Shown in pieces: positions 6,412 to 41,080 of a stretch of DNA of 64,000 bases; within the stretch, counting starts at the first letter, position 1; every line of letters starts with the position of its first letter. The notes below the pieces were generated by a model, which was given only the letters and a program-made list of their open reading frames with translations, was not told the origin of the DNA and did not search any database. Source of the stretch: an uncultured virus (IMG/VR IMGVR_UViG_3300000928_001655) (lineage: Duplodnaviria > Heunggongvirae > Uroviricota > Caudoviricetes); IMG/VR virus record IMGVR_UViG_3300000928_001655. One strand, 5' to 3'. Both the position numbers and the translations under genes were made by a program.

Positions 6412-7011
6412 TTAGATGTCAAAGTGATTCTTGACAATAGTCTTGAACCGTTTCATATCTAACATCAAGAAAGGAAAATACTTCCTTGAATGATGTATTA
6501 TATCAGATGCCACGAATTTGTCAAGCAAATTCTGCTCCCAATACGAAAAAATATTTGCAATGTGTACTAGTATTGCAAATGTTTCCAGTGTTATCTTCTT
6601 CTGTAAGTACAGAGTCAATACGACTGGGTGTTGACCATCGGTTACGAAGTTGGATTTCCAGTCATCTTCGAGATGCTTTAAGTCCGACTTGAAAGTGTAA
6701 CCTAACGAATCAATTCTTTTCTTCCATTCGACGTACAAGATGTCGTCCTCTGCGATATCTCGAATCCATGCATTTGGGTTCTTGACTAAGTTTGCCAGAA
6801 GGACGTTCTCGTAATCGTCTTGTTTATATAGTTTTGCAAAGTAAAATGCATCAGGGCGACTTTTAAATGTGTCGAATGAGGCTCTTACTTTACCGTTATA
6901 TTTATGAAAATCATAACTTGGAGATGTGAAATGTTTCTTCATTGCAAGGTACTTTATGTACGCCGCATATGACTGATCATTCACATAACTCGGTAATGTC
7001 CTGTTGTTCAT
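6412..7011 (-). CDS. 59: helicase loader (T4 gp59)
   Basis: YLAMKKHF..YDFHKYNGK, HP...LYLQKKITLET; lies between gp33 and gp32. Confidence 0.88.
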   Translation of the reverse strand: MNNRTLPSYVNDQSYAAYIKYLAMKKHFTSPSYDFHKYNGKVRASFDTFKSRPDAFYFAKLYKQDDYENVLLANLVKNPNAWIRDIAEDDILYVEWKKRIDSLGYTFKSDLKHLEDDWKSNFVTDGQHPVVLTLYLQKKITLETFAILVHIANIFSYWEQNLLDKFVASDIIHHSRKYFPFLMLDMKRFKTIVKNHFDI

Positions 7012-8437: not shown

Positions 8438-9144
8438 TTACTATCCTCTCCAAAAGTGTACCTTGTTGTGCCGTCTTTTTTCTTTTCTACTTGCAGTTCG
8501 ATCTGACCAAACAAAAAATATCTAACTCCACGTTCTTCAGGTATCTCTTTCTCTATTATAATTTGGTTTCTCGCAGGCAAATGCGATTTAAATTCTTCTA
8601 ATGAATGTACACAGTTAATGTGACCTTCGATGTCTGTCATATTGTTTGACTGAACTGCGAAATATATATCTCTGCGTTTCTTCGTCCAATGACTTTGAAA
8701 CTTTATCAACTCGTGCATCTTCATCTCTATATGTTCGGAAGACGTATTGATTATCAGTAGGTCTACCTCTTCACCAAAGACTGGATGCTTTTCCTTTGTC
8801 AAGTCTGCCGATCTAAACTGCACGTTATCGTATTCATTTATTATAGATGCAATGTGATTCGCTTCTTTATCGATATCAAAACAAAACATCTCCTTTACAA
8901 GTGGTGCAAGTACTGGAACTAATATCGATCCGTACCAAGAACCAATGACTATTACTTTCATTTCTTTGTGTATTATACCACTTGTTAAGACACTTGTCAA
9001 GAGTTCTTTTTTCGAAATGAATTGATTTTTACTAATCGAATCGAAAATGTCCACAGTTTTCTCTGGAAACCTTCTACTCACCTCAAAAATATTTTGTGCA
9101 TATCCTATATCGAATTTATTATCAAACAGATCTATTTTTTGCAT
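8434..9144 (-). CDS. class I SAM-dependent methyltransferase-like protein
   Basis: VIVIGSWYG, CFDIDKEA, IINTSSEH. Confidence 0.6.
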   Translation of the reverse strand: MQKIDLFDNKFDIGYAQNIFEVSRRFPEKTVDIFDSISKNQFISKKELLTSVLTSGIIHKEMKVIVIGSWYGSILVPVLAPLVKEMFCFDIDKEANHIASIINEYDNVQFRSADLTKEKHPVFGEEVDLLIINTSSEHIEMKMHELIKFQSHWTKKRRDIYFAVQSNNMTDIEGHINCVHSLEEFKSHLPARNQIIIEKEIPEERGVRYFLFGQIELQVEKKKDGTTRYTFGEDSK

Positions 9145-10715
9145 ACCCAATCCTCAATCACCAAATAATGTAGTCCAGTTCTCTTGAATGTATCTACAGC
9201 ATTCTGTGGTGTCTCGACAATAGGTTCCTGACAATTGAAACTCGTATTCAACAACATAGGAACGCCAGTCTCTTCCTTAAACGCACTAATCAGCTTCCAG
9301 TACTTCTCGTTAAAAGACTTGTCTACCGTTTGTATACGTGCAGTACCGTCGACGTGAACGATGCCTGGCACTACAGATTTCTTCTCTTCTTTGACAGGCA
9401 TGATGCGTGACATGTAAGGAGAGGGTTGATTCGTATCAAAGTATTCCTGATAGTCTTCGATCAATACAGATGGAGCGAATGGACGGAAGTCCTCTCGCTT
9501 CTTGATATCTCTATTGATGATGTTCTTAATCTCAGGGTTACGAGGATCTGCGAGGATGGATCGATTACCCAGTGCACGATTACCACTCTCTGATCTACCT
9601 TGATACCAACCTACAATCGCTCCGTTTGCAATTTCCTTCGCAATAAATGGATATATGTCATCCATATTCATTCGTTCATAATTCATATCACCAAAAATCT
9701 CTTCTTTTATTTCATGTTCAACGCCAGCATATACGGGCGGAATATGTGTATTGTTATTTAGGACATAGTCTGCCATCATATACATGCCCAAAGACTGTCC
9801 TTCATCACCAAGTGCAGGTGGAATGTACACGTTCTTGTATATCTTTGAGATCATTTCATTCATGTAACCGTTGTACGCCACACCACCACTCAGTGCCACA
9901 CTGTCAGATGTTTTATGTTCTTTTATCAAGTCCATTATACGGTCATAAGTTAACTGTTGCATCGTTGCAGCGAGATCTCTGCCAGGGATCTGTTTCTTGT
10001 TACAGAAAGAGAGAATTTCAGACTCGTGCATGGGAAGAAATTTATTAGAACCCCCATCCCTAGAAATTTCATCTAATACTGGATATAGTTGTTGATCCAC
10101 CTTACCGAATGCCGCTAAACCCATTACTTTACCAACTTCGTGATCTAACCAGATACGTCTATCCATTAATTTACCAACTATCGAAGTGGTTGCAATCCAT
10201 GTTCTACCAAGATTGAAAGTATTGCTTAGGTTCGTAACGTTCTGATCTTTGTCGGCAATGAAACTTGTAAACCTGTTACCCCCACCATCAATCGCAAATA
10301 CATCACATTCGTCAAATCCACTTTGGATGTATGAATACGCCGCATGAGCCTGATGATGATCCGCATAGAATAGGTTATCTTTATAATAGTGTTCGAAAAG
10401 AGTCTTTGGATTGTAGTCTAATAACGCCTCTTTGTGAGGAATGAGATCTGACCAGAATCTAAAAAAAGCATTATTTCTAGGTATAGACATCGCCATGACA
10501 TCATATTCATTCCACTGTGGAGTGATTACATTTTCATAGTGGAGCATCATCCCATAATCATTTGGATGACAGGATTTGAGATCTCTTGGTGTTGGATCTG
10601 CTCTTGTTCCAATTCTGTTACCTTTGACACGTGAATATCTTTCGGCAACCCAATGAGTTTTACCATCATACCATGTTTGATCATGTGATGTTAATGCAGA
10701 TCCAATTAATTTCAT
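9132..10715 (-). CDS. carbamoyltransferase, NodU/CmcH/TobZ family, full length
   Basis: HHQAHA, IDGGG, GKVMGLA, LSGGVAYN, GRSESGNRALGNRSILADP, REDFRPFAP, HVDGTARIQ, LLNTSFN. Confidence 0.93.
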   Translation of the reverse strand: MKLIGSALTSHDQTWYDGKTHWVAERYSRVKGNRIGTRADPTPRDLKSCHPNDYGMMLHYENVITPQWNEYDVMAMSIPRNNAFFRFWSDLIPHKEALLDYNPKTLFEHYYKDNLFYADHHQAHAAYSYIQSGFDECDVFAIDGGGNRFTSFIADKDQNVTNLSNTFNLGRTWIATTSIVGKLMDRRIWLDHEVGKVMGLAAFGKVDQQLYPVLDEISRDGGSNKFLPMHESEILSFCNKKQIPGRDLAATMQQLTYDRIMDLIKEHKTSDSVALSGGVAYNGYMNEMISKIYKNVYIPPALGDEGQSLGMYMMADYVLNNNTHIPPVYAGVEHEIKEEIFGDMNYERMNMDDIYPFIAKEIANGAIVGWYQGRSESGNRALGNRSILADPRNPEIKNIINRDIKKREDFRPFAPSVLIEDYQEYFDTNQPSPYMSRIMPVKEEKKSVVPGIVHVDGTARIQTVDKSFNEKYWKLISAFKEETGVPMLLNTSFNCQEPIVETPQNAVDTFKRTGLHYLVIEDWVCKK

Positions 10716-11773
10716 TTGAATATATCTTCTGTTACCTCATGAACTTTTCCTGCAAATGGTTCTGGAATATCTTTCCTACCATTCAGAACATAGTTACAAT
10801 GCATGTAAAGACCCATAGACTGACCTTCGTCACCAGGCGCATTTGGTACAAAAACATTTTCCCAATGTTTGGTATATTTTTCGTTGAGATATCCATTGTA
10901 AGATACACCCCCTGCAACACACAGATTGTTTGATGTCTTATGTGGTAGGATTGTGTCTAGTACAATTTCATTTGTAAACTTCTGAAGAGTGAATGCCATG
11001 TCTTCTTTCCACATCGCATCATTAGTGTAAGGATCGAAGAACTTTTCTTCTGGCCAATACTTACCGTCTTTCACTTTGAACTCTTCGAACATCAGATAGA
11101 AAATATCTTCCCATCTTGGTGAATACTTACCGAACCCTGCAAGTCCCATTAACTTACCTTCGTTAAGAACACCAAATCCACCAAGTCGTGTCATGACATT
11201 CCACAACCAACCAACTGGAAGATCGTTACTTAGATTGATTATCTCTTGTGTATCTGATGGAATAAAAATAGCTCTGAATGTATTACCTTGTCCATCAATG
11301 ATAAAGATATCTGATTCTTCATAACCAGAGGATAGGAACGTGTGTGCGGCATGACACTGATGATGATCTGCGTAATAGACATTGTCTTTCGTCAGATGAT
11401 CCCAAAGATGTTCTGGTACATACTCGTCTGTTTCTTTGGCGAAGTCATTACCAAGTTTATGGAAGTACGCATCTCTACCATAGAGTTTCACTCCATTGAC
11501 TGTTATATTAGTCGCAAAGATTTCGTCACTGTCAACGTGACTATCCCAAAGGTTATTATACATGTTTTGAAAAGGAATTTGTTCATTGATAACTTTGTTA
11601 TCTAGATCCTTATACCATCTGCGTTGTTGTTCGACACTCGCACCGTATTTTAGTTTCCAGTAACAATGTTTACGACGAGAAGAATCATCATACCTTTCAT
11701 ATTGTATGTGATATTCTCCATCGTATGTGTTGTGATCATGTAAGTTTAGAGGTTGGGCAAAGATCTTTTTCAT
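10712..11773 (-). CDS. carbamoyltransferase, N-terminal (Kae1-like) domain only
   Basis: HHQCHA, IDGQG, EGKLMGLAGFG, AGGVSYNG, PGDEGQSMG; lacks the C-terminal GNRSIL/RPFAP domain. Confidence 0.85.
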   Translation of the reverse strand: MKKIFAQPLNLHDHNTYDGEYHIQYERYDDSSRRKHCYWKLKYGASVEQQRRWYKDLDNKVINEQIPFQNMYNNLWDSHVDSDEIFATNITVNGVKLYGRDAYFHKLGNDFAKETDEYVPEHLWDHLTKDNVYYADHHQCHAAHTFLSSGYEESDIFIIDGQGNTFRAIFIPSDTQEIINLSNDLPVGWLWNVMTRLGGFGVLNEGKLMGLAGFGKYSPRWEDIFYLMFEEFKVKDGKYWPEEKFFDPYTNDAMWKEDMAFTLQKFTNEIVLDTILPHKTSNNLCVAGGVSYNGYLNEKYTKHWENVFVPNAPGDEGQSMGLYMHCNYVLNGRKDIPEPFAGKVHEVTEDIFK

Positions 11774-12582
11774 TATCCAACCATCTTATCAAGTATCTTT
11801 TCCATCATTAAAGCTTCGACTCCACTGTCTCGTCTGGACAATTTCTCTGTACAGTTCTGACAATACTTCTCGAACTCGAATAATTCAAAGTTCATCATCT
11901 TATCAATATTTTCTTGTGTCACGTCAAAGTGCCGTGAACCATTGATCACCTTCTTACTACAGTGCCTAATCTTTTTCAATTCGAAATCAATTACTGGAAC
12001 ACGAGGGAACAAAGAACACATTCGTCTTGTCATCTCTGGTTCCTGATCGAACTTATCATAGGTGGGTGATCGTGAGTTGTATTCTTTGAACTGTGTGTTC
12101 TTGTGGTATAGATGCATAAGACCATGCTTCTTTCTATACTCTTCAAAGTTCGGTGTCATAATAATCAGATTATAATTGTTGTTATCATTCACTGTTAAGA
12201 AGTCATAGTTACCTAACTTTTCAATACGGTCTTCATAGAAGTCCAACACTAAGTGTTCCACATAATGGACTGCAGGATCATCTAAGATGTGAGGATAGAA
12301 TTTCCGAATCAAACTGTTAGACAGAACAACTGGCGTGAGATTAGGATATTTCTTAATCTCATCGATGACTTCATCTAAGTTGTTAGTAAGTGCAGGTTCA
12401 CCACCAAGTAGGTTGATCCTCGCTTTGTATGGACTTAACCATTTGAGTAACGGTGATATGAAATCCATGTCCACATCTAAGTTACGCATCTCAGTTGTCC
12501 ACGCAGTACAATAGTGGCAAGATTTGTTACAAGACTTTGTAAGATAAAAGTCTATACCAAATCCAAAGGCTTCTGATGACAT
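11773..12582 (-). CDS. radical SAM protein
   Basis: CNKSCHYC, LLGGEP; further C-terminal Cys (CQNC). Confidence 0.9.
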   Translation of the reverse strand: MSSEAFGFGIDFYLTKSCNKSCHYCTAWTTEMRNLDVDMDFISPLLKWLSPYKARINLLGGEPALTNNLDEVIDEIKKYPNLTPVVLSNSLIRKFYPHILDDPAVHYVEHLVLDFYEDRIEKLGNYDFLTVNDNNNYNLIIMTPNFEEYRKKHGLMHLYHKNTQFKEYNSRSPTYDKFDQEPEMTRRMCSLFPRVPVIDFELKKIRHCSKKVINGSRHFDVTQENIDKMMNFELFEFEKYCQNCTEKLSRRDSGVEALMMEKILDKMVG

Positions 12583-13679
12583 TATAAAATTCCTGTGATT
12601 GACTCTATGACTGTATTTATTTCATCGTCCGTAAGGAAAGGATTGATAGGAAGTGACATAACTGTCCTTGATGCGTTCACTGAGTTGGGTGTATCACAGT
12701 TATATCCATTCAATACTGGATTTTCTGTAAGTGAACAATCATAGTGGACTTTAGGACTCCACTTCTTTGACATCTTGATAGACTGTATTACGAAGTCTCT
12801 CGTCTCTTGATCATCGAACCGTACCACGTATTTGTGGTAATTGTGTTGCAACGTACTACGAGGTTTCTGTGCTTGCGTGATGAGTTTTCTCTTAAACGCT
12901 GCATCATACTTCTTTGCAATCTCTTGTCGTTTGGATTGCCAGACTGTTAAGTGTTGTAATCTCCAATTGATGACCTCTGCATTTGGTACATATAGTTTAG
13001 AGTTCATAGACCCAGGCACTACGAACAACTCTCCCTGTTTACCGTGTCGACGCATTGACATAACTCTTTGTGCCATGTCTTTATCGTTAGTCATAAACAT
13101 ACCACCGCCTGCAAGACCTGCGATAACCTTGTTTGAATTGAAACTTAAAACACTGCAGTCACCAATAGTTCCTGCTTTACGACCATCAAGACTTGACCCA
13201 AGACCTTGTGCGGCATCCTCTACGAAAAGAATACCTTTGTCTTTACACCAATCTTCAATCTCTCTAGTGTCATTCATAGATCCATACAAGTGAGTATAAA
13301 TGAGTGCCTTGGTATTGTCAGTGTAGTTGTCTTTGATAGACTGGAAGTCTAGGTGATAGGTGTCGATATCGATGTCTGCGAATACAGGTGTTGCACCTAC
13401 ACGTGTGATGCACGTTGCAGAGGATATCCATGAGAAGTTTGTCACAATAACTTCGTCACCTGCACCAATACCATTCGATGCTAGTGCGAAGTATAGTCCA
13501 TCTGTTGCGTTTGCGACACCAACGGCATAATAACGACCTGTAAATCGTTCAATGTTCTTCTCTAGGAATTCAACACTACCATCATATTCTTTTCTCATCG
13601 CTTTGTCAAGTAGGGTATGGTAGTGAGACTGGTTATAGTCCCACTCACGATCCCATGCATCATAAGGTATCAATTTCAA
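12582..13679 (-). CDS. DegT/DnrJ/EryC1/StrS PLP-dependent sugar aminotransferase
   Basis: ANATDGL, GAGDEVI, EDAAQGLG, SFNSNKVIAG..GG, SLPINP; TTG start with AGGAG RBS. Confidence 0.93.
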   Translation of the reverse strand: MKLIPYDAWDREWDYNQSHYHTLLDKAMRKEYDGSVEFLEKNIERFTGRYYAVGVANATDGLYFALASNGIGAGDEVIVTNFSWISSATCITRVGATPVFADIDIDTYHLDFQSIKDNYTDNTKALIYTHLYGSMNDTREIEDWCKDKGILFVEDAAQGLGSSLDGRKAGTIGDCSVLSFNSNKVIAGLAGGGMFMTNDKDMAQRVMSMRRHGKQGELFVVPGSMNSKLYVPNAEVINWRLQHLTVWQSKRQEIAKKYDAAFKRKLITQAQKPRSTLQHNYHKYVVRFDDQETRDFVIQSIKMSKKWSPKVHYDCSLTENPVLNGYNCDTPNSVNASRTVMSLPINPFLTDDEINTVIESITGIL

Positions 13680-13701
13680 ACTCCTGTACGTATTTTAGTG
13701 T

Positions 13702-13730
13702 ATTATACCATTAAAGATTCGATTTGTCAA
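13702..13730 (-). promoter_or_regulatory. sigma70-type promoter driving the degT-to-gp32 run
   Basis: TTGACA-17 nt-TATAAT with TG extension. Confidence 0.75.
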
Positions 13731-16047
13731 GTTCATATGACCCATCATCGTGTTCTTTTTCTGTCATTTTTGCAGTTTTTCCCCAAGACTCTATAAGAGC
13801 TTTTCTTTCTTCTGTCATGGGTCTGGGTTCATAGAACTCTTCAAGTTCTGGGAAGACATCAAACAAATGCATCTCCCATCTTGTTCCCTCATAGTATTTA
13901 TCTTGAAGTAACAAGTACTCAAAAATGTCTTGAAGATCTACGTGTTTTTCTGCAGGACGACTTAATGCCGCTTGAATATCTGGCCATTCTGCATATTTTG
14001 GTATCAGATCTTTTTTGATCTTCTCTGGTAGATTGTTAGTTCTCAACGCAGGAGGGTTCTCTAACATCGCCCAGTTCAACTGATCAATAACAGGATTTTG
14101 TTTACACCAATCAACCACTTCATAGAACCTCATTGCACTCAAGAAAGATACTAGTCCGTTAAAGTCCACAACTGCGTTGTCAAATGCACCACAGAGTTCA
14201 ACGTTCTTCTCAACCTTTGCCCAGTCAGTTCTTCTACGCATGTATTCGATTACTGGACCGACACCGTCAACTGATGCAACAACTGCAACATGATTGAAGT
14301 AAGGAATATAGGTAAGAAGATTGTGTTTACCTGCCTTGGTTTCTGTCAAGTTAGTTTGGTACTTCAGAGAAATTTTCTTTGAGTGTCCACGATCAATCAG
14401 TGCGTCCAACATTTCATATTGTTTTTTCATAATCAAAGGTTCACCACCAATGATTTTGATACTCTTAATATAAGGTGCAAGTTCAACAATCTGATCGACA
14501 GATCCCTGTGTCTTATCTCTTAAAACACTTTGTACAAGTCTTCCATTTGGATTAGAGTTCTCACCGTGTGTGTAAGATGACCACACTCCTTTAGTAACCA
14601 CACCAGCTTTCAAACTTTTCATTCGTGTAGTAGAATTAATGAAGTCACACATGTAACAATCAATATTACATTCTGATCCATAGATCTTTAACTGGACTTC
14701 GAATATTCTTTCACTTGGTGTATTGAACTCTTCTTTATAGTAGTGAGAGTTCTTAATCTTAAACTGACCAGTTTTTCTAAACTTGTCTACCTTCGACTCA
14801 ATCTTATTCCAGAAAGGTGGATCATTCGTATGGATCTTCAAACAGTTGGTACGTCTTGAACGACCATACTTCTCTTCATCTGTATAACATCGGTTGCAGA
14901 TCTTTTTAACGTTCCTCAGATCAGATCCAGGCGTTGTCATCTCACGTCTGATAGAGTTCATGTATTCACTATCTTCCATCCACTCAACAAGACTTACATC
15001 TTCTACTGACACACCACTTGATGCACCGAAACAACATGCCTGATACATACCGTCAAGTTCTGCATAGATCTGAGTAAATGGAATAGTACAGAAAAAGATA
15101 TCTTTTGCCTTTGCGAGTTGAACAATTGAATTGTCCAACGCAGTTGTCATCTCACCTTTTTCGTCCATGTTCTGCCACCATGCGGCAGTACTGATATGGC
15201 CTGGAGTGTTCTTATCGCCAGGTCCGCCTTTAGTAAGATGGATGGGGTGATCTTTCCATACAACTGGTAGATCTCCAACTGGCCAGTCAAACGCCCATGC
15301 TTTTTCCTCACACCAGAAACACATTCTACATTCTGTTGTACCATCACAGGTTAAGTATGGAGATGTCCCAACGCAAGATCTACATATAGGAAACAAATCT
15401 GACATCAAACCATTTTCAATGAAAACACCTGCGACAAACTTCTTATCTACATTACAATAAGGTTGATAGATGTTGAATGGTGGCCATTTAGTACTCAGTC
15501 TCCACTCTTCTATTGTGTCGAGTTCTTGATCTCTGCGTCTTTCGCCCTTCTCAAAGAAATCTAGTTTGCGCATTTCTTCTGAAGGTGGGTTGCGTGTCAT
15601 ACCATCAAGACGAATCGCATTAGGATCGACTTTCTGTGCCTTTTCCATCATTGCCCAAGAAATTCTATCTACTTGAATAATCTTCGAGACTTGTCTTCGT
15701 CTCGGCATAGCTGCAAATGTTTCATTCTGTGCAGTGATCTCATCTACCTCTGCGTGAGTAATGAAGGTTTCATCCTTGTCATTGAAGTCATGGATCTCAA
15801 TAGGTGGAATATTATTGTCTGGGAATTTGTTTTGCATCCACTCAACAATCAAACGTGCCGCAACCGCATCTTTCGGTGCGTTTTGATCTCGACATGTATA
15901 TGGTACAAGTTGTACTTGTGGAAAATGTTTTGAAACCAAATACATGAGACTACAAGAGTCAAGTCCACCCGACATAGAGATAGGACATAATTTTGGAATT
16001 GTGTCTGGAAACAAGTTTATTGTTTGATCACCGTGTGTAATTTTCAT
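13711..16047 (-). CDS. fusion of QueC-like PP-loop ATPase, N-terminal twitch domain and radical SAM core
   Basis: SMSGGLDS, RSC..CRMCFWC; then CTIPF..ACC..CNRC; then CNIDCYMC and GGEPL. Confidence 0.85.
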   Translation of the reverse strand: MKITHGDQTINLFPDTIPKLCPISMSGGLDSCSLMYLVSKHFPQVQLVPYTCRDQNAPKDAVAARLIVEWMQNKFPDNNIPPIEIHDFNDKDETFITHAEVDEITAQNETFAAMPRRRQVSKIIQVDRISWAMMEKAQKVDPNAIRLDGMTRNPPSEEMRKLDFFEKGERRRDQELDTIEEWRLSTKWPPFNIYQPYCNVDKKFVAGVFIENGLMSDLFPICRSCVGTSPYLTCDGTTECRMCFWCEEKAWAFDWPVGDLPVVWKDHPIHLTKGGPGDKNTPGHISTAAWWQNMDEKGEMTTALDNSIVQLAKAKDIFFCTIPFTQIYAELDGMYQACCFGASSGVSVEDVSLVEWMEDSEYMNSIRREMTTPGSDLRNVKKICNRCYTDEEKYGRSRRTNCLKIHTNDPPFWNKIESKVDKFRKTGQFKIKNSHYYKEEFNTPSERIFEVQLKIYGSECNIDCYMCDFINSTTRMKSLKAGVVTKGVWSSYTHGENSNPNGRLVQSVLRDKTQGSVDQIVELAPYIKSIKIIGGEPLIMKKQYEMLDALIDRGHSKKISLKYQTNLTETKAGKHNLLTYIPYFNHVAVVASVDGVGPVIEYMRRRTDWAKVEKNVELCGAFDNAVVDFNGLVSFLSAMRFYEVVDWCKQNPVIDQLNWAMLENPPALRTNNLPEKIKKDLIPKYAEWPDIQAALSRPAEKHVDLQDIFEYLLLQDKYYEGTRWEMHLFDVFPELEEFYEPRPMTEERKALIESWGKTAKMTEKEHDDGSYELDKSNL

Positions 16048-16056
16048 TTGTTTGCC

Positions 16057-16626
16057 CTAACTATCTTTCATTCGTTCTAGTTCTGCGATAAAATCTATCG
16101 ACTGTACAACACCTGCTTCTTTTGATTTACGCCAGAAGTCTGCAAATGCAACTATGTTTCTTTCTTTTTGATCTCTACCTGCGGCTTGGTACTCAATACA
16201 CATTGGTAAATAGACTTTCACATCGTGACCTTCTTTTGCCCATGGAATTGCAGAATACGGTGTTTGATCTAATACACACCCTTTTGTATTTGTACCACCA
16301 AAGATAACTCTTCGAGGAATTACACCTTTATCAAACAACATAGTTTCGATGCTATGTATTGTGGGATATCTCACAGGATCTATTTGAACCCACCTGTGGA
16401 AGTCGTCAGCCTCTACCTGTTTGCGCAATTCGTTCATTTTAAACTCAGATTCTCTTTTATGATCTGACAAGATTATGAATTTCTTATGTCTACCAAAGAG
16501 CAAACCTCTCAGAGTACTCCAACGAAGTTCTTCAGACGCTTCATCTGTTGACAGGGGATGTCCTTCGAAATGAATAAGGACAATAACATCTCTTAAATGA
16601 GCTTGTTTCTTTTTATTCTTTGCCAC
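16057..16626 (-). CDS. isochorismatase/cysteine hydrolase-like protein
   Basis: VIVLIHFE and VIFGGTNTKGCV resemble the GxxTxxCV motif. Confidence 0.5.
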   Translation of the reverse strand: MAKNKKKQAHLRDVIVLIHFEGHPLSTDEASEELRWSTLRGLLFGRHKKFIILSDHKRESEFKMNELRKQVEADDFHRWVQIDPVRYPTIHSIETMLFDKGVIPRRVIFGGTNTKGCVLDQTPYSAIPWAKEGHDVKVYLPMCIEYQAAGRDQKERNIVAFADFWRKSKEAGVVQSIDFIAELERMKDS

Positions 16627-18043
16627 GTTCTAACACTCCACTATCGTACATTTTCTCGTGTAAGTCCTTACCCATCCAGTAAGGTTTCAATTCTGGATAT
16701 AGATCCCATAGACTACCTTTAAAATCAGAGTTTCTATATCTTAGATCCATCCTCAACAAATAATCAAACGTGTCTTGATAACTCAGACCACCGTTATCTT
16801 CTCTTAGTACCTGTTGAATGTCTGGGAAGTTATCATACTTAGGTATCAACTCCTGTTTAAGATCGTAAGGTAATACGTTTGCAGCTAACAGTTTGGGGTT
16901 TCTGATTTCCGACCAGTTCATCATAGACAACCAGTCATCATTTGCTTCTGCCCATTCAATTAATTCGTAGAACCTAATAACACTCAGGAAGTTGATAACT
17001 CCATTAATATTAATTCTAACATTAGGGAACTCAAGAACTGTTTTAATATTCGCCTGGATTGTTTCCCAATTTGATTTACGTCTCATGTAATCGTTATATT
17101 TACCAACACCATCAAGAGATATTGTGAATTCAAATATATCGAAATGAGGAATGTAATCAAGAATATTCTTCTTACCGTTTGGACCATCTAATTCAAGAGA
17201 TGCCATGTTAGTTTGGTACTTAACCATTATTTCTTTAGAATGTCCAGATTCTACGATACCATCAAAGACATCGTAGAATGATTTCATTACAAGTGGTTCA
17301 CCGCCAATAAATTTTAGATTACGTATATACGGTGCAAGCCTTACAATGTTATCAGCAAACTTTGATTGCACCTGTCTCTTTGGATTATCGTTTGGCAACA
17401 GTGATCTTGCAGCGAAAACTTTTTGTCCCTGCATCGATTGCGATTGCATAGTCTGTGATCGTGTCGACGAATCAAATGGCATACACATAAAACAATCAAG
17501 ATTACATGTGTTACCAAAAGTCTTGATTTGCATTTCGAAAACTCTGGATTGCATTCTTGCCTTACCAGTGTCTCTGAAAACCTGAACTGCTTCTGCAATC
17601 ATTGGCCAAATACCAACATCATTTGTTTGGATTTTTAGAGATGCCTGTCTACGTGATCTTCCATATTCTTTTTCTTGTCTAATACAGTGCTCGCAGACAT
17701 GTTTACAAGTCTCCAAAGGATCGTTTGGAGTTGTCATCTCTTTGCGCATCTTATTGAGAGTTTTATCATGGACAAAATAGTCTTCGATACTTTTCTCTCT
17801 GATGTTTGGTGGTTCATCATCTGGTGCTTCCATTGCCCAAGAACAAGGTAGGAATCGTCCCTTCACATCCGTATAGAGTAATTGAAACGGCGCAGAACAA
17901 AACCAGATGTCACCATCTCTGATTTGATCTTCGAAGAGTTTAAACTCTTGAAACCAAGAACTCATGTCAACAGTACCATCACCAAGGTACATGTCGCCAG
18001 GACCACCCTTCCAGAGGTGTGATTGGTTACTGTTGTTACTCAT
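16613..18043 (-). CDS. twitch-domain radical SAM protein, paralog of the C-terminal part of 13711..16047
   Basis: CSAPF..LPCS..CEHC, CNLDCFMC, GGEPL, KYQTN. Confidence 0.9.
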   Translation of the reverse strand: MSNNSNQSHLWKGGPGDMYLGDGTVDMSSWFQEFKLFEDQIRDGDIWFCSAPFQLLYTDVKGRFLPCSWAMEAPDDEPPNIREKSIEDYFVHDKTLNKMRKEMTTPNDPLETCKHVCEHCIRQEKEYGRSRRQASLKIQTNDVGIWPMIAEAVQVFRDTGKARMQSRVFEMQIKTFGNTCNLDCFMCMPFDSSTRSQTMQSQSMQGQKVFAARSLLPNDNPKRQVQSKFADNIVRLAPYIRNLKFIGGEPLVMKSFYDVFDGIVESGHSKEIMVKYQTNMASLELDGPNGKKNILDYIPHFDIFEFTISLDGVGKYNDYMRRKSNWETIQANIKTVLEFPNVRININGVINFLSVIRFYELIEWAEANDDWLSMMNWSEIRNPKLLAANVLPYDLKQELIPKYDNFPDIQQVLREDNGGLSYQDTFDYLLRMDLRYRNSDFKGSLWDLYPELKPYWMGKDLHEKMYDSGVLERGKE

Positions 18044-18977
18044 CTTTTAATGATCCTTTAAGTGGGTTCTCATTAATAGGTTGTTGCCAAGATATCTTTT
18101 CAACACCCTGATCTGTTTTACCATCTGGCGCAATTCTCAATCCAAAATCAAAATCTTCGTCTGACATCACTTTCCAAGGTGCTCTGTTTTCTTGTTGTTG
18201 TAAAACGGTTTGTTCTGGCGGGGGTGGAGGGTTTTCTTCCAACCAACGTCTTCTTGGAATGTTATGCCAACTCTCTAGTTGTTTGGTTCTGTGTGCCCAG
18301 TACTCTTTCTTTACTCTTGCTTCTCTATGCTTTGCATCAGGTGCGCCTAATTTAAAGTCAACGTTATCTCTGAGTAACGGATTGTCTGTACGGAAACCTC
18401 TATTAGTATTCACCACAAGTAGTGCAAAGTCTTCCTCTTTGGCGATCTCAATTGCACGTTCTAGTTCATGTTCGTTGTAACCAAAGACGATATACTGCCA
18501 TACAATACAGTGTCCTAAATCACGACCTTGTTTCATACGCTTCCATACGTCATCAAAATTAGAACCAATACGATAGAGTTCACTCTTCTTGTCAATACCA
18601 TCTACACCAAAGTACCAAGCGTTCTCACCTACACCATAACTATATGCTTCGTCCCACCACTTATCTGGTTTACCACTACCGACTGTTGCAATACGAACTG
18701 CTTTCTTCTTACCATCACATATCTTTAGAAGGCTTAAGAAGTCTTTGTGGTAGATTGGATCTGAGATTTGACCACAGAAAGTAATGCCGTAATCATAGTA
18801 GTCCAATATCTTTTTAAATTGTTCTGGTTCCAAGTCAAAAGATCTACGAATTTGCGTTTGACTCGTAGTCTTCTGTCTAATGCACTGAGGGCATTTGAAA
18901 ATACATCTATGCGAAGTGTCAATGTTCGGACGACTTCGTCTCTGATTTTTTACGTACAGATCAGTTATTCGACTCAT
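18036..18977 (-). CDS. radical SAM protein
   Basis: CIFKCPQC, CGQISDP, FGVDG, WQYIVFGYNEHE. Confidence 0.88.
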   Translation of the reverse strand: MSRITDLYVKNQRRSRPNIDTSHRCIFKCPQCIRQKTTSQTQIRRSFDLEPEQFKKILDYYDYGITFCGQISDPIYHKDFLSLLKICDGKKKAVRIATVGSGKPDKWWDEAYSYGVGENAWYFGVDGIDKKSELYRIGSNFDDVWKRMKQGRDLGHCIVWQYIVFGYNEHELERAIEIAKEEDFALLVVNTNRGFRTDNPLLRDNVDFKLGAPDAKHREARVKKEYWAHRTKQLESWHNIPRRRWLEENPPPPPEQTVLQQQENRAPWKVMSDEDFDFGLRIAPDGKTDQGVEKISWQQPINENPLKGSLKDE

Positions 18978-21995: not shown

Positions 21996-22973
21996 TTAAG
22001 TTCTTGTCACATATAATCCATATGTGGATATCGTTGTTGCTACCCCATTTGGGAATTCTTGTGATCTGTAATCGTCTACGCCTACAAATCTAGTTGTATA
22101 TCCTGTTGCACTCGTACCATTCAATCTAGTGTCTGCAATTGCTGAACCACATAGTGTTCCAGATCCATCAGGTGCTTTCAAAAAGTAGGATAGTTGATAC
22201 CCTGCTTCTGACTCTGCTGCGTATTTTACAAATCCCCCAAGGAAATTGTCCCAAGTTGCGGCAGGTGGTGCTCTTAGATCTGTAACGCCACCAGTAATAT
22301 CAATAGCGAGAGGAATAATGGCACCTGCAGTTGCGTCACCATTAAACCTATGTAAGTAATAATTATTTATGTCGATTGGTTGATCTAATGATTCGGGAAT
22401 ACCTGCTGATGTGAACAGTGTTGTATCCGCACGAGTATCAATGAAGATAGGATCTGCTGATACCAGAGTTGCACCTGCCAAAGAGTTGGAAGTACTGATC
22501 GTGTAAGATCCACCCTTCTTACCAGTATCTGTCTCTCCATTACCTGATGCGATCATACCAATCGCTTCATCAACAAATGTATCAATCATATCTTGTTGCG
22601 TCATCGCTTTGATTTCACCTGCTGTGGCATCCCAATAAACTGGATAACTGAGGTTCGCATCTGAAGGATAAGCTTGTGGTCCGTTTGTTGTCTGGTTAAC
22701 GTGATCATATGTCAATGAGACTTGTGATATATCAGCAGTGGCTGCTTCAGCCACGTATGTTACGGTTCCAATTGATGCGGCACCTGCTTGCATTCTTGTG
22801 TCAGTCAACACATCTCCTGCATTTCCACCAGTCGCAACACGACTGAGAATAACAGAAGGGTCAAGAGAGTATTGATAAACCATTCGTTCGCAGACATCGG
22901 TTACCTGCGCCGTGGTCATTGATCTCATATCATTGTTTACTGTGTCCCAATATAGTGGCGAACGTACTGTCAT
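21996..22973 (-). CDS. putative virion structural protein (paralog B)
   Basis: T/A/G/D-rich; MTVRSPLYW, DTRMQAG, QQDMIDTF, SQEFPNG shared with neighbour. Confidence 0.6.
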   Translation of the reverse strand: MTVRSPLYWDTVNNDMRSMTTAQVTDVCERMVYQYSLDPSVILSRVATGGNAGDVLTDTRMQAGAASIGTVTYVAEAATADISQVSLTYDHVNQTTNGPQAYPSDANLSYPVYWDATAGEIKAMTQQDMIDTFVDEAIGMIASGNGETDTGKKGGSYTISTSNSLAGATLVSADPIFIDTRADTTLFTSAGIPESLDQPIDINNYYLHRFNGDATAGAIIPLAIDITGGVTDLRAPPAATWDNFLGGFVKYAAESEAGYQLSYFLKAPDGSGTLCGSAIADTRLNGTSATGYTTRFVGVDDYRSQEFPNGVATTISTYGLYVTRT

Positions 22974-22982
22974 ATCGTTTCC

Positions 22983-23954
22983 TTACGCTCGTTTACAAGT
23001 TAAATAGTATGTGGTCAAAACAGTCTCAACTCCATTCGGAAACTCTTGTGTAATATAAGAGTCGATGTTAAGGAGACGTTGTAAATAACCTCTGGAAGAT
23101 AGACCTGAAAGACGAGTATCAATCATCGTACCTCTTCTGTTTGATGCAGTAGAAGCTTCTTCGATTGCATAGACGATTTTATTTCCAGTTTCTGTCGCTG
23201 CATGTCTGATTGCAGGACCTAGTAACGCATCTAATTTAGTGTTATTATATTCTTGGATCATCGGATTTGTAGCATTTGTTAGATACATTGGTCTCACTGT
23301 TGGAGCAGGAGCAGTTGCAGAAATACCATATTGATAGAGGTAATATGTTTCTTCTGTACTAGGTCTGTCTCTCACGGTATCTGGTAATGCGCTTGCGGCA
23401 GGGAATGCATCTACATCGGCAATCGTGTTTATGAATATTGGATTTGCGCTTACTCTTACTAAGTCATTTGGTACTGTTGCACCTGCTTCTAAGATCTCGT
23501 AAGTACCTGCTTTTTCAGCGTTGGAAGAACCACTTGTTGTTAACTTAATAATTGCAGGTTCAATAAAAGTATCAATGAAATCTTGTTGCGTCATAGATCT
23601 GATGTTATCATTACTATCAATGTAGGTAGGATATACAATGCTATTAGTGTCTGCAGGATAGGAAGTACCACTTGCAGTTCCCTTAGATATGTGATCGTAA
23701 GTGGTTACCACCTCTTCGATGTTAGGTGTTTCATCCGCTCTAGCAAATCTATCTACTCTAGAAACGGATTCCCCAGCTTGAAATCTGGTGTCTTCCATTG
23801 CAGACAGGTTACCAGATGCAGCTACGTATGACAATGTGGCAGACGGATTCTGCCCGAACAACCAAATTGCACGTGACTGAATCTGTTCTACATGAGCAGC
23901 AGTCATCGGTTTGAAACCGTCACTTGCCCAATATAGTGGAATTCTTACTGTCAT
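22983..23954 (-). CDS. putative virion structural protein (paralog A)
   Basis: MTVRIPLYW, DTRFQAG, QQDFIDTF, TQEFPNG. Confidence 0.6.
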   Translation of the reverse strand: MTVRIPLYWASDGFKPMTAAHVEQIQSRAIWLFGQNPSATLSYVAASGNLSAMEDTRFQAGESVSRVDRFARADETPNIEEVVTTYDHISKGTASGTSYPADTNSIVYPTYIDSNDNIRSMTQQDFIDTFIEPAIIKLTTSGSSNAEKAGTYEILEAGATVPNDLVRVSANPIFINTIADVDAFPAASALPDTVRDRPSTEETYYLYQYGISATAPAPTVRPMYLTNATNPMIQEYNNTKLDALLGPAIRHAATETGNKIVYAIEEASTASNRRGTMIDTRLSGLSSRGYLQRLLNIDSYITQEFPNGVETVLTTYYLTCKRA

Positions 23955-24160: not shown

Positions 24161-24205
24161 GATGATGTCCCTTTAATATCTTGCGGTTATTATTCATCTC
24201 GAAAT

Positions 24206-24213
24206 TATTTATG
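24206..24213 (-). promoter_or_regulatory. T4-type late promoter (CATAAATA) heading the leftward operon
   Basis: One mismatch to TATAAATA, about 45 nt upstream of ATG 24160. Confidence 0.55.
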
Positions 24214-24221
24214 CAATATGT

Positions 24222-24490
24222 AAAATGTCCACACTTCTGTTGCTAGGCAGTGGACTCTCCCCCTGTGATTACGCCGCTAGACGTAACTCAGATGGTGCGA
24301 AATTATCATTTGCACTTGTAGTTTTTGACCGAATAACGTAGGTCAACACGATAATCTCCACTCAACTAGCCCGTCTGTCGATCCTAGTTCATCCCCATCA
24401 AAAGCACACTCAGTAAATGTGTTTATGGTGGAGATGTGGGGTACTGCCCCCCAGTCCAGTCCGTCTTCGAATCGCTTCATCGATTACATC
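24222..24490 (-). ncRNA. ssrA: circularly permuted two-piece tmRNA (alphaproteobacterial type), tag ANDNFAPSELRLAA
   Basis: Acceptor piece ends GGGGCAGTACCCCACATCTCCACCA at 24426; 29 nt spacer; coding piece starts GGGGATG at 24396; G3.U70 pair; tag frame 24313..24269; outer ends approximate. Confidence 0.93.
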
Positions 24491-24494
24491 TTTA

Positions 24495-24523
24495 CTTATA
24501 CTCTATCATACTGCATTTGTCAA
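24495..24523 (-). promoter_or_regulatory. sigma70-type promoter of ssrA
   Basis: TTGACA-17 nt-TATAAG. Confidence 0.7.
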
Positions 24524-24540
24524 TACCTAATCTATCTATT

Positions 24541-24548: not shown

Positions 24549-24601
24549 GTCTCGTGAATTCTTCGGCATGATTGATCAACATTATAAATCAGGAGATATT
24601 T

Positions 24602-24924
24602 ATGTCAGAAGACAATAAAAAGACCATCGACGCATCTGCAGTAGCAGGAATGGATGTGAACGGTGATGGACACATTTCAGCAGAAGAACTGGAAATGCAT
24701 TTAGAGTTCAAACGCAAAGCGCTTGAAGATCAAGATGCACAAAGAGATGCCATGAGAAACATGACATGGTTTGCTCTNNNNNNNNNNNNNNNNNNNNNNN
24801 NNNNNNNNNNNNNNNNNNNNNNNNNNNNNNNNNTATTGTTGGTGATATCGCACCTACGTACTTTGTTGCAATTTCAGCTTTGGTTGCTGCATTCTTTGGT
24901 GCAGATGCGATCCGCAAGAAATAA
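24602..24924 (+). CDS. small membrane protein with EF-hand-like motif, possible holin (spans N gap)
   Basis: DVNGDGHISAEE; after the gap a hydrophobic frame IVGDIAPTYFVAISALVAAFFGADAIRKK*; AGGAG RBS. Confidence 0.55.
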
Positions 24925-24925
24925 C

Positions 24926-24954
24926 AAAAAAGGGGAGACCTTAAAGATCTCCCC
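24926..24954 (-). terminator. intrinsic terminator (minus strand)
   Basis: GGGGAGA/TCTCCCC stem followed by T6 on the minus strand. Confidence 0.75.
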
Positions 24955-25244
24955 CTCATAATATAATGTGTGGGGTGGATTTACTTANNNNNNNNNNNNN
25001 NNNNNNNNNNNNNNNNNNNNNNNNNNNNNNNNNNNNNNNNNNNNNNNNNNNNNNNNNNNNNNNNNNNNNNNNNNNNNNNNNNNNNNNNCACTCCGTCGAG
25101 TGAAGAAAACTGTGTACCATCGGGCAAATCTATTAATAGTCCCGATGGTAAATGTTCGGCTGTAAGTCAAGAGAAAGAATCTCACCTCAACACTATTGGC
25201 GTACCGACATTTTTAAGATCGTTGAGTCGTTATTAACAACTCAT
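24955..25244 (-). ncRNA. unidentified structured non-coding RNA (partly in N gap)
   Basis: Lies between promoter 25251-25279 and terminator 24926-24954; several hairpins; no credible ORF. Confidence 0.55.
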
Positions 25245-25250
25245 ATAAAC

Positions 25251-25279
25251 ATAATATAGTATTCTTTCACATTTGTCAA
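25251..25279 (-). promoter_or_regulatory. sigma70-type promoter of putative ncRNA
   Basis: TTGACA-17 nt-TATTAT. Confidence 0.65.
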
Positions 25280-25312: not shown

Positions 25313-25809
25313 TTATCCTTCCCAACGGTAATAAATGTGTGCACCCAAACGTCCAACTTGTTGTAACGTACGTGCCCAACTAGGGTTCACATAGGTTGCG
25401 TGGTAATGGGTTGCACCCTCAGTGATACCACGGTAACGATTAAACTCAAGCATTTGATATGCGATCAACTGCGATTCGTTCCACAGATCATCGTCTTGTG
25501 GATTGTCTGCTTTACCGTCACAGTACCAAGAGAACTGACACTTGTTACGTTTCATTTGACCATTACTATGTTGTTGTCCCTGTTTGACAACTTCACATAT
25601 TGTATTGGGGTAACGTGTATCGAGCATACGATTGATAACTACGTCTGCAACACCAGCTTTATCTGCTAGGTTACTACTACGTGCTTCATAGTATATGTTC
25701 AAAGATAGACATACATGTTCTTCTTGTTCAAAGATNNNNNNNNNNNNNNNNNNNNNNNNNNNNNNNNNNNNNNNNNNNNNNNNNNNNNNNNNNNNNNNNN
25801 NNNNAACAT
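25313..25809 (-). CDS. cell wall hydrolase, SleB/Hydrolase_2 family (spans N gap)
   Basis: CLSLNIYYEAR, VADVVINR, YPNTICEVV, CQFSWYCDG, GATHYHA, GAHIYY; start inferred upstream of the gap. Confidence 0.9.
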
Positions 25810-27867: not shown

Positions 27868-27896
27868 TTGACAAGTTTGTAAGACGGTGGTATAAT
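27868..27896 (+). promoter_or_regulatory. sigma70-type promoter
   Basis: TTGACA-17 nt-TATAAT with TG extension. Confidence 0.8.
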
Positions 27897-40456: not shown

Positions 40457-41080
40457 TTAATTATTATAACATTGTTCTACTAGATTGTCAACATCTTTTT
40501 TTGACAATGTTGGTTTCCAAGGATCTTTTTGATCCCATCTCTCAGAATAGTTTACTACGAAACGTATTCCATTTTTATTTGCGAGGTTATATGCATCCCC
40601 GACTTGATGTTGGTTGTGCTTCAGTACTGGAAAACTCCACGTAACATTTGCACCCATTAATGCGCCAAGACGCATTGCATTAAAGGACTGATCAAAAATC
40701 AATCCTTTTCTATAAGTCCCTGCAGTGTCTTGGAGACCGTCTACATCAAAGTGAAATCTATCATCTTTGTTTGTACAAACGGCGAATATGTATTCCCACC
40801 ACTTTTCATTATATCCAGAACCAACAGTATATAGTGACATTGGTATAGAACTCTTCTCAATCATTTCCACGATCTCAGGGAACTTGGAATGATAGATTGG
40901 ATCTCCTAGATTACCACACAATACTATTCTATCTGGTCTGTTATTTATAACAGTCTGCACATGTTCCATTTTGATATCTGTCTCAGCATATAATCCTTTA
41001 AGTAAGGTTCTGGGACATTTAGAACAAGCTTGAAAACACCTAGACGTGAGTTCAATCTTTATATTTTTCCGTGCATTCAT
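40457..41080 (-). CDS. radical SAM protein (core only)
   Basis: CFQACSKC, CGNLGDP, DVDG, KHNQHQ. Confidence 0.88.
   Translation of the reverse strand: MNARKNIKIELTSRCFQACSKCPRTLLKGLYAETDIKMEHVQTVINNRPDRIVLCGNLGDPIYHSKFPEIVEMIEKSSIPMSLYTVGSGYNEKWWEYIFAVCTNKDDRFHFDVDGLQDTAGTYRKGLIFDQSFNAMRLGALMGANVTWSFPVLKHNQHQVGDAYNLANKNGIRFVVNYSERWDQKDPWKPTLSKKDVDNLVEQCYNN

Follow-up and report, generated by a model that had tools for sequence, protein, structure and literature searches.

One question raised by the genome of the uncultured virus IMGVR_UViG_3300000928_001655 (Duplodnaviria; Heunggongvirae; Uroviricota; Caudoviricetes) is what kind of gene occupies the minus strand between positions 24,926 and 25,279 of the 64,000-nucleotide (nt) stretch analyzed here, which is called the window throughout. 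A first-pass annotation had seen a promoter, a terminator and several hairpins beside a gene for transfer-messenger RNA (tmRNA), and had suggested a possibly undescribed phage RNA. Our analysis indicates, with a probability of roughly 0.7, that the unit is a stand-alone gene for a stable RNA of the manA class (Rfam family RF01745) in an uncultured marine T4-like phage, whose product is possibly capable of self-assembly.

Closing the assembly gap

Six runs of N are found in the window, and one of them (24988-25088, 101 N) interrupts the unit. Two contigs, L084 and L120, whose sequence on either side of this run (154 nt and 647 nt) has 100% identity with that of the window, carry 133 nt at the same place; hence, the gap of about 100 nt in the earlier description agrees with the counted N but not with the true length. 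Another contig, L001, was recovered via relatives of the neighboring hydrolase gene (99% identical), and its flanks are 100% and 99.8% identical to the window. The stretch filled in from these contigs holds most of a manA-like core. In the window only helix P1 and the last ~23 nt of this core are readable, and the presence of the remainder, which consists of N, is deduced from the 100% identical flanks. Two neighboring runs are also too short when compared with 100% identical contigs, namely 24778-24833 (56 N instead of 69 nt) and 25736-25804 (69 N instead of 88 nt). Because three of the N runs are shorter than the real sequence, the lengths of N runs and the reading frames across them are unreliable. 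Neither the region nor the gap-filled unit had a match among 50,697 phage records (blastn).

The manA-like core

When the gap-filled copy was compared with Rfam, the 3' part of the unit (~175 nt aligned) matched RF01745, whereas the 5' leader matched no family. The core, ~171 nt long in real sequence, is located at 24965..25103 on the minus strand, corresponding to L001 1587-1757 (47.3 bits, E 3.9e-11, model positions 1-192 of 192) and L084 1501-1671 (45.2 bits, E 2.3e-12). The alignment covered the full model (positions 1-192) in every match, with E-values between 2.4e-13 and 3.9e-11 per record, and all five of the first related records contained one full-length match of 40.6-49.3 bits. None of the 14 control genomes and just two of 50 further phage records sharing the hydrolase gene gave a match, hence the similarity is not background. 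The gathering score of RF01745 (55.2) is reached neither by L001 and L084 nor by any of the relatives (40.6-53.4 bits), so that a known Rfam family was matched in the statistical sense but below its own threshold. Canonical manA RNAs from a consensus-pattern collection score 85-197 bits, with 41 of 50 records above the cut-off.

The residue-level alignment of L001 shows where the agreement lies. The aligned blocks are P1, GUGACUGAA, AAGGU, GGGUAG, GGUAAUAAGUAAAUCC and the closing helix, while the middle hairpins align poorly and with low posterior probabilities. With canonical manA the core shares, besides the full-length model alignment, a P1 with a GAYG-type loop, the blocks GUGACUGAA(UAA), UAAGG and GGUAG, the last hairpin GGUAA..AAUCC and the closing long-range helix. 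The latter reads GUGG/CCAC here but GGGAG/CUCCC in canonical copies, and where canonical manA has its middle three-way region, the core forms two short hairpins side by side with invariant UAGC loops, which mark this branch and are absent from five aligned canonical copies. Judged from its alignment, the core lies within the manA class as a divergent member, on a distinct, distant branch. The CACTC/GAGTG hairpin noticed before is indeed present at 25089-25102 on the minus strand; however, as CACUC-GACG-GAGUG it is helix P1 of manA (model positions 1-16) and thus not undescribed.

Further support came from the relatives of the core, which were collected with a degenerate pattern taken from its conserved 5' part at 13 viral-contig loci and 33 metagenome-contig loci, five of the latter being chance matches (L109, L121, L125, L134, L140). 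The 58 stretches represented 27 distinct sequences, which were reduced to 18 cores by removing the five chance matches, the truncated L118 and L132, and L110 and L094, which vary outside the core only. These 18 distinct cores score 40.6-53.4 bits against RF01745. RNAalifold predicted 31 pairs, 20 of them with compensatory changes (three of six in P1); 97.7% of all cells are paired on this structure, and none of 500 shuffled alignments reached the observed values. When the partners were slid by 1-3 columns, 3-8 pairs changing on both sides were left compared to 20, a control in which the structure is favored by being derived from the same 18 sequences. The 4-base pair (bp) closing helix is invariant and therefore neither supported nor contradicted by covariation. 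In total 56 alignment columns are invariant, and a GUUUU tract is conserved before P1 whatever lies upstream. Among 80 hydrolase-linked loci, our own model R1 matched only L001, L002, L053 and L057; the divergent L086/L087 type reaches just 15.8 bits with it, and the window is missed due to the N run.

Promoter, terminator and RNA-library evidence

The core belongs to a unit with its own transcription signals. The previously reported minus-strand promoter TTGACA-17-TATTAT is found at 25251..25279 (-35 box 25279-25274, -10 box 25256-25251); it agrees with the sigma-70 consensus at 11 of 12 positions and ranks first among 14 promoter-like sites between 23500 and 26500. It is also included in the 12 sites of the type TTGACA-N16-18-TANNAT in the window, compared to 1.3 +/- 1.1 in 100 shuffled sequences, hence this phage clearly uses such promoters. 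Near-consensus early promoters, often reading TTGACAA, occur across the window, for example at 6497-6524, 13702-13730, 27868-27896 and 40463-40491. Transcription of the unit would start near 25244. The intrinsic terminator, likewise present on the minus strand as described before, is located at 24919..24957 and consists of a 13-pair stem (24957-24929) with six G-C pairs followed by a U tract; its T run exists on the minus strand only, and the stem starts ~8 nt past the core. The unit accordingly extends over ~320 nt in window coordinates (~25244 to ~24922) and ~350 nt in real length, and not over ~290 nt as estimated earlier.

ARAGORN detected no transfer RNA (tRNA) or tmRNA in 24926-25279, and at the Rfam gathering and E-value thresholds no tRNA, tmRNA, RNase P, signal recognition particle (SRP) or 6S RNA was found in this region or in the gap-filled copy, which agrees with the earlier view that the RNA is none of these. 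Weak Rfam matches to sbrA, L20_leader, S15, MicX, snoRNAs and 6A (E 0.03-8) were rejected as terminator look-alikes or noise, with sbrA and L20_leader covering the terminator hairpin only.

The unit is represented in RNA libraries by assembled contigs, from which strand, ends and level are not readable. A 246-nt metatranscriptome contig corresponds to L001 1464-1709; it bridges leader and core and carries the allele of the window at position 1602. In a third RNA study, a relative of the tRNA-Gly type has a depth of 48.8, compared to 3-9 for other contigs there. The contigs of run X4 comprise the EF-hand-like gene downstream of the unit only, and no meaning attaches to stretches that lack a contig.

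Genomic context of the core and its relatives

At this locus ~8 nt separate the core from the terminator, behind which lie a convergent gene for a small EF-hand-like membrane protein and then the tmRNA gene with its own promoter-like site. Although RF01745 is filed as Cis-reg, an arrangement as 5' untranslated region (UTR) does not exist here, because a terminator and a convergent gene come next. The closest relatives are placed among tRNA genes. A co-oriented tRNA is found within 200 nt of the core in 15 of the 18 distinct cores, and in L085, L094 and L114 just 5-13 nt separate the two on either side. Among canonical manA copies, in contrast, tRNA adjacency is the exception, with tRNAs within 450 nt in six of 50 loci, all of them co-oriented.

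Several arrangements recur. The core directly follows tRNA-Gly in L082, lies between tRNA-Gly and tRNA-Thr upstream of a same-strand tmRNA in L085 and L094, and in L114, L104, L106 and L133 is preceded by tRNA-Pro and a 165-nt module and succeeded by tRNA-Arg. It follows tRNA-Leu and a tRNA-like element in L091 and L119, has a promoter of its own ~16 nt ahead and a 190-nt module plus tRNA-Arg behind it in L089, L113, L124 and L130, and in L116 stands behind its own promoter and a ~180-nt leader. The own promoters of the relatives agree with the consensus at 10-11 of 12 positions. Downstream of the core, most relatives carry a tRNA or a further RNA module. The linkage to the hydrolase gene is not conserved, since a tRNA or tmRNA is missing from the vicinity of 27 of the 29 loci L002-L030.

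The modules that accompany the relatives were recorded as observations of their own. The module of ~165-180 nt between tRNA-Pro and the core (L114 732-904, minus; L104 732-898, minus; L106 529-695, plus; L137 732-912, minus) is conserved in diverged contigs, ends with ...UAUAGGGCGGGCCA and has no Rfam match at E <= 0.1. The ~190-nt module between the core and tRNA-Arg (L089 369-566, minus; L110 365-566, minus; L113 369-566, minus; L124 861-1054, plus; L130 366-566, minus) is conserved with visible paired changes, shows ...GAUAGGGCACCCCA near its 3' end and is also without Rfam match. Promoter-proximal modules at the head of RNA-only operons (L088 889-1048, minus; L093 331-611, plus; L116 480-695, plus) have GUAGCCUGNGC..ACGUUA in common. 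The tRNA-like element between tRNA-Leu and the core carries a GGGTTCGAGTCCC T-arm (L091 ~600-690, plus; L119 same place, minus) and is called by neither ARAGORN nor Rfam.

The 5' leader

The part of the unit upstream of P1 is a structured leader of ~140 nt (25104..25244, minus strand) with three helices and a U-rich tract at its end. The four hairpins listed in the first-pass annotation are all at their places, and the three in the leader belong to its predicted minimum free energy structure: the 10-bp hairpin TACCATCGGG/CCCGATGGTA (25115-25150), the hairpin TGAGTTGTT/AACGACTCA (25223-25243), whose U.G pair forms on the minus strand only, and the long-range helix AAATGT(T)CGG/CCGACATTT (25150-25159 with 25204-25212), which encloses the branched part. 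The 147-nt 5' part folds with -40.6 kcal/mol (z -3.86), a value that was matched by none of 200 shuffled sequences; on the opposite strand the z-score is -1.73, and 12 of 200 shuffles were as good.

No Rfam match was obtained for the leader in the window or in the gap-filled copy. When it was searched with nhmmer against 140 loci and then 161 more, only identical copies from three contigs were found, and among the matches listed from a scan of viral contigs for the hairpin-arm pattern L359 alone matched the leader, the others being unrelated inverted repeats. A different stretch, GGGAGAACCATCGGGATAGAACTG.GT.CCAAACCCGATGGT, recurs in homologous form in many unrelated viral contigs (L265, L267, L278, L281, L283, L284 and others, at ~401-434); its spacer is exactly 18 nt in 54 of 121 re-found loci, and it probably represents a conserved gene segment unrelated to the RNA unit. 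The leader may be a lineage-specific module, for whose function the folding energy is the sole support. The suggestion of an undescribed RNA therefore holds for the leader with its three hairpins, which has neither Rfam match nor homolog beyond identical copies, but not for the conserved core, which is manA-like.

Proposed reading and its alternatives

In the scenario that we favor, host RNA polymerase would start at the sigma-70-type promoter near 25244, transcribe the ~140-nt lineage-specific leader and then the ~171-nt core, and stop at the strong intrinsic terminator near 24922, releasing a product of ~350 nt. The core would fold with the order of helices and unpaired blocks of RF01745 but with peripheral hairpins of its own, namely the adjacent pair with UAGC loops. 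Most likely the RNA would be made as a free and stable molecule together with the tRNA and tmRNA set of the phage. Because the unit has its own promoter and terminator, no same-strand gene follows, and its relatives reside in tRNA arrays, a free stable RNA fits better than a cis-regulator. By homology with the manA assemblies of 8, 10 and 60 subunits, it may form a self-assembling RNA particle.

Several observations weigh against this view. The core is masked by N in the window, and its presence is deduced from other contigs with identical flanks. The matches to RF01745 all stay below 55.2 bits while canonical copies reach 85-197 bits, so the core represents at best a distant manA branch. The leader is without covariation support, as identical copies are all that was found. 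A contig from an oligo-dT library (L001 1574-1991) runs across the terminator, and the RNA-library contigs in general show presence in RNA preparations, for which carry-over of DNA is possible. In four contexts (classes B and C, L116 and L137) an ORF begins 10-50 nt past the core, as would be expected for a 5'-UTR element. Finally, self-assembly is known only from canonical manA constructs in vitro, whose contact-making peripheral loops differ from those found here, and a search by eye for loop-loop complementarity permitting kissing contacts revealed none that is consistent across the classes.

Among the alternatives, the one that survives best regards leader and core as two RNAs sharing one promoter, with the leader being an independent, undescribed functional RNA that would be cut from the core at the U-rich tract. 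It is a possibility worth considering, albeit a doubtful one. The leader folds well alone and in a strand-asymmetric manner, the relatives hold other uncatalogued structured modules between promoter or tRNA and core, or between core and tRNA, none of which has an Rfam match at E <= 0.1, and the GUUUU tract before P1 is conserved irrespective of the upstream sequence. However, homologs of the leader other than identical copies were not found, no convincing homology emerged when MAFFT was used to align it to the promoter-proximal modules of L088, L093 and L116, and one RNA-library contig bridges both parts.

Clearly less probable is a riboswitch or attenuator, in which the core would act as aptamer and the terminator stem 24957-24929 as expression platform, gating read-through antisense to the EF-hand-like gene into the tmRNA gene. 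It might be supported by the original proposal of manA as 5'-UTR riboswitch candidate (PMC2864571), by the short distance between core and terminator, by a possible pairing, judged by eye, in which the core would contact with its C-rich 3' end the G-rich 5' arm of the terminator, by the glutamine riboswitch reported beside the tmRNA of Melnitz (PMC9004378) and by the ORFs just downstream of the core in four relative contexts. Nevertheless, a promoter-like site at 24608..24581 belongs to the tmRNA gene itself, the next gene downstream is convergent, and no alternative partner of comparable strength exists for the 13-pair terminator stem, again as judged by eye. Neither mutually exclusive terminator and antiterminator structures, assessed in the same way, nor a regulated gene on the same strand were found. 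In the relatives, cores that abut tRNAs with 5-13 nt to spare leave no room for a platform, no terminator was found past the core in L088, L089 and L116, and the downstream genes of the four contexts are mutually unrelated. Since terminator and convergent gene follow the core, a role as 5'-UTR regulator at this locus is not expected.

It is much less likely still that the unit represents a passive spacer, i.e. the decayed remnant of a tRNA operon that lost its tRNAs and has no function of its own. This idea draws on L088, where the hydrolase gene, a promoter, a module, tRNA-Gly, spacer hairpins, a manA-like core, tRNA-Thr and tmRNA follow each other on one strand; the syntenic place behind the hydrolase gene thus shows the same frame as the window, which lacks the tRNAs. 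However, the core is kept with compensatory changes across classes that are otherwise wholly different around it, it retains the 56 invariant columns, and at this locus a consensus promoter was kept together with a dedicated terminator.

A protein-coding function can practically be dismissed, in line with the earlier statement that no credible ORF exists: a 56-aa ORF exists on the RNA strand, and gap filling opens a 100-amino acid (aa) antisense ORF (L001 1756..1454), whose frame has no stop within the core in nine of 18 relatives (frames counted from the sequence end); however, indels shift the frame, that which is open in class A is interrupted by 1-3 stops in each of classes C, D and E and vice versa, no frame is kept between classes on either strand, the ORF would enter antisense tRNA genes in the relatives, the substitutions follow the paired-helix pattern, and no Pfam match exceeds its cut-off (DUF1664 17.3 bits compared to 34.6).

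Neighboring genes and the phage

The genome that carries the unit is, judged from its genes, an uncultured marine T4-like myovirus. The window encodes UvsX, a gp32-like single-stranded DNA-binding protein, a DnaB-like helicase, gp46/47-like nuclease subunits and a gp43-type polymerase (PHROGs); no deposited phage has a polymerase more than 44.6% identical to this one, the best matches being Phage C48C1 and T4-like cyanophages. Upstream of the unit, a gene for a cell-wall hydrolase (Hydrolase_2, SleB-like) is located at 25313..25702 on the minus strand (PF07486, E 3.3e-20; endolysin PHROG), and 34 nt separate its stop codon from the -35 box of the unit. On the other side, the convergent gene at 24602..24924 on the plus strand ends 5 nt short of the terminator stem and encodes a small protein (111 aa in L001) that contains a single EF-hand-like Ca-binding loop, DVNGDGHISAEELE, and is hydrophobic in its C-terminal half. 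Its Pfam EF-hand matches, among them EF-hand_5 with E 4.6e-5, all stay below the cut-offs, and the gene is oriented divergently from the tmRNA promoter.

The two-piece (permuted) alpha-type tmRNA gene is located at 24178..24527 on the minus strand (ARAGORN; Rfam RF04321 114.4 bits, RF01849 109.9 bits), i.e. on the same strand as the unit and ~440 nt downstream of it. Beyond this tmRNA, four tRNAs were detected in the window (ARAGORN, Rfam). Just downstream of the tmRNA gene two tandem paralogous ORFs (21996-22973, 325 aa, and 22983-23954, 323 aa, both minus strand) begin with MTVR.PLYW; neither has a match in PHROGs, and the second, the only one scanned against Pfam, has none there. Furthermore, the region 9132-18977 (minus strand) contains two carbamoyltransferase-like genes, an aminotransferase gene and three radical-SAM-like genes, and resembles an auxiliary biosynthetic module.

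Relation to known systems and significance

Weinberg et al. (2010, PMC2864571) proposed that the manA RNA, known from marine phages and bacteria, is a candidate riboswitch located in 5' UTRs; their supplements list it in the seed alignment and tables without further discussion. Recently, in vitro assembly of manA RNAs into particles made of RNA only, namely octamers, decamers and an icosahedral cage of 60 subunits, has been reported (Ren et al. 2026 preprint, 10.64898/2026.07.01.735769). According to the cryo-EM structures in this preprint, the contacts consist of kissing loops and loop-receptor interactions, the core is conserved while the peripheral helices vary, and manA falls into two structural groups; manA is still regarded there as putative 5'-UTR element, and the word tRNA does not occur in its text (10.64898/2026.07.01.735769). 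The RNA described here belongs to the same class by homology and likewise combines a conserved core with differing peripheral helices, so that assembly may be considered by analogy. It further resembles canonical manA in its occurrence in marine T4-like phages and in that some canonical copies also touch co-oriented tRNAs, but differs in that, at this locus, a promoter, a 140-nt leader and a terminator belong to the RNA itself and there is no gene for it to regulate. In the literature we found no paper on a manA branch below the threshold or on a stand-alone manA gene beside a tmRNA.

Other phage RNAs offer partial parallels. The T4 species 1 and 2 (rnaC, rnaD) are small stable RNAs of not known function that are encoded and processed among the T4 tRNAs; the likeness to the present unit is positional only. 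ROOL and GOLLD are phage-borne RNAs, also with functions not known, often situated near tRNA islands, which form closed RNA-only assemblies (Kretsch et al. 2025, PMC12286853). Like GOLLD, the unit has a conserved 3' and a variable 5' region; unlike both RNAs, which reach 500-800+ nt, it measures ~350 nt with a core of ~171 nt, and no Rfam match to ROOL or GOLLD was found in the window, the gap-filled copy or the relatives. In Melnitz and pelagimyophages a glnA riboswitch is located beside a two-piece tmRNA (Buchholz et al. 2022, PMC9004378). The arrangement is similar in that a structured RNA, preceded by an early sigma-70-type promoter, neighbors an alpha-type two-piece tmRNA in marine myophages (PMC9004378), but the RNA family is another one, terminator and convergent gene part the tmRNA from the unit, and no glnA match was found in the window at E <= 0.01 (Rfam).

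A more far-reaching speculation, which we consider improbable at present, is that the RNAs with twin UAGC loops are an uncatalogued cage-forming branch of manA, expressed as early RNA-only genes of tmRNA-carrying marine T4-like phages. In this lineage the leader would then be a covalently tethered appendage or cargo of the particle, as are tRNAs in the GOLLD linker, and the particle would act on the translation apparatus together with the phage tRNAs and tmRNA.

Since 2010 manA has been filed as cis-regulatory riboswitch candidate, and the 2026 preprint reports that it forms RNA-only cages in vitro. The locus offers a clean natural case of a manA-type fold as a self-contained transcript beside a phage tmRNA. 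Rfam annotation at the gathering threshold misses the whole branch, with at least 18 distinct sequences below it. The branch also supplies natural variants for work on assembly, with differing peripheral loops and, in one case, a 5' extension. Collectively, the self-contained unit, the adjacent tmRNA and the closest relatives in tRNA arrays support the notion that manA-type RNA may act in these marine phages as a free stable RNA tied to the phage translation toolkit.

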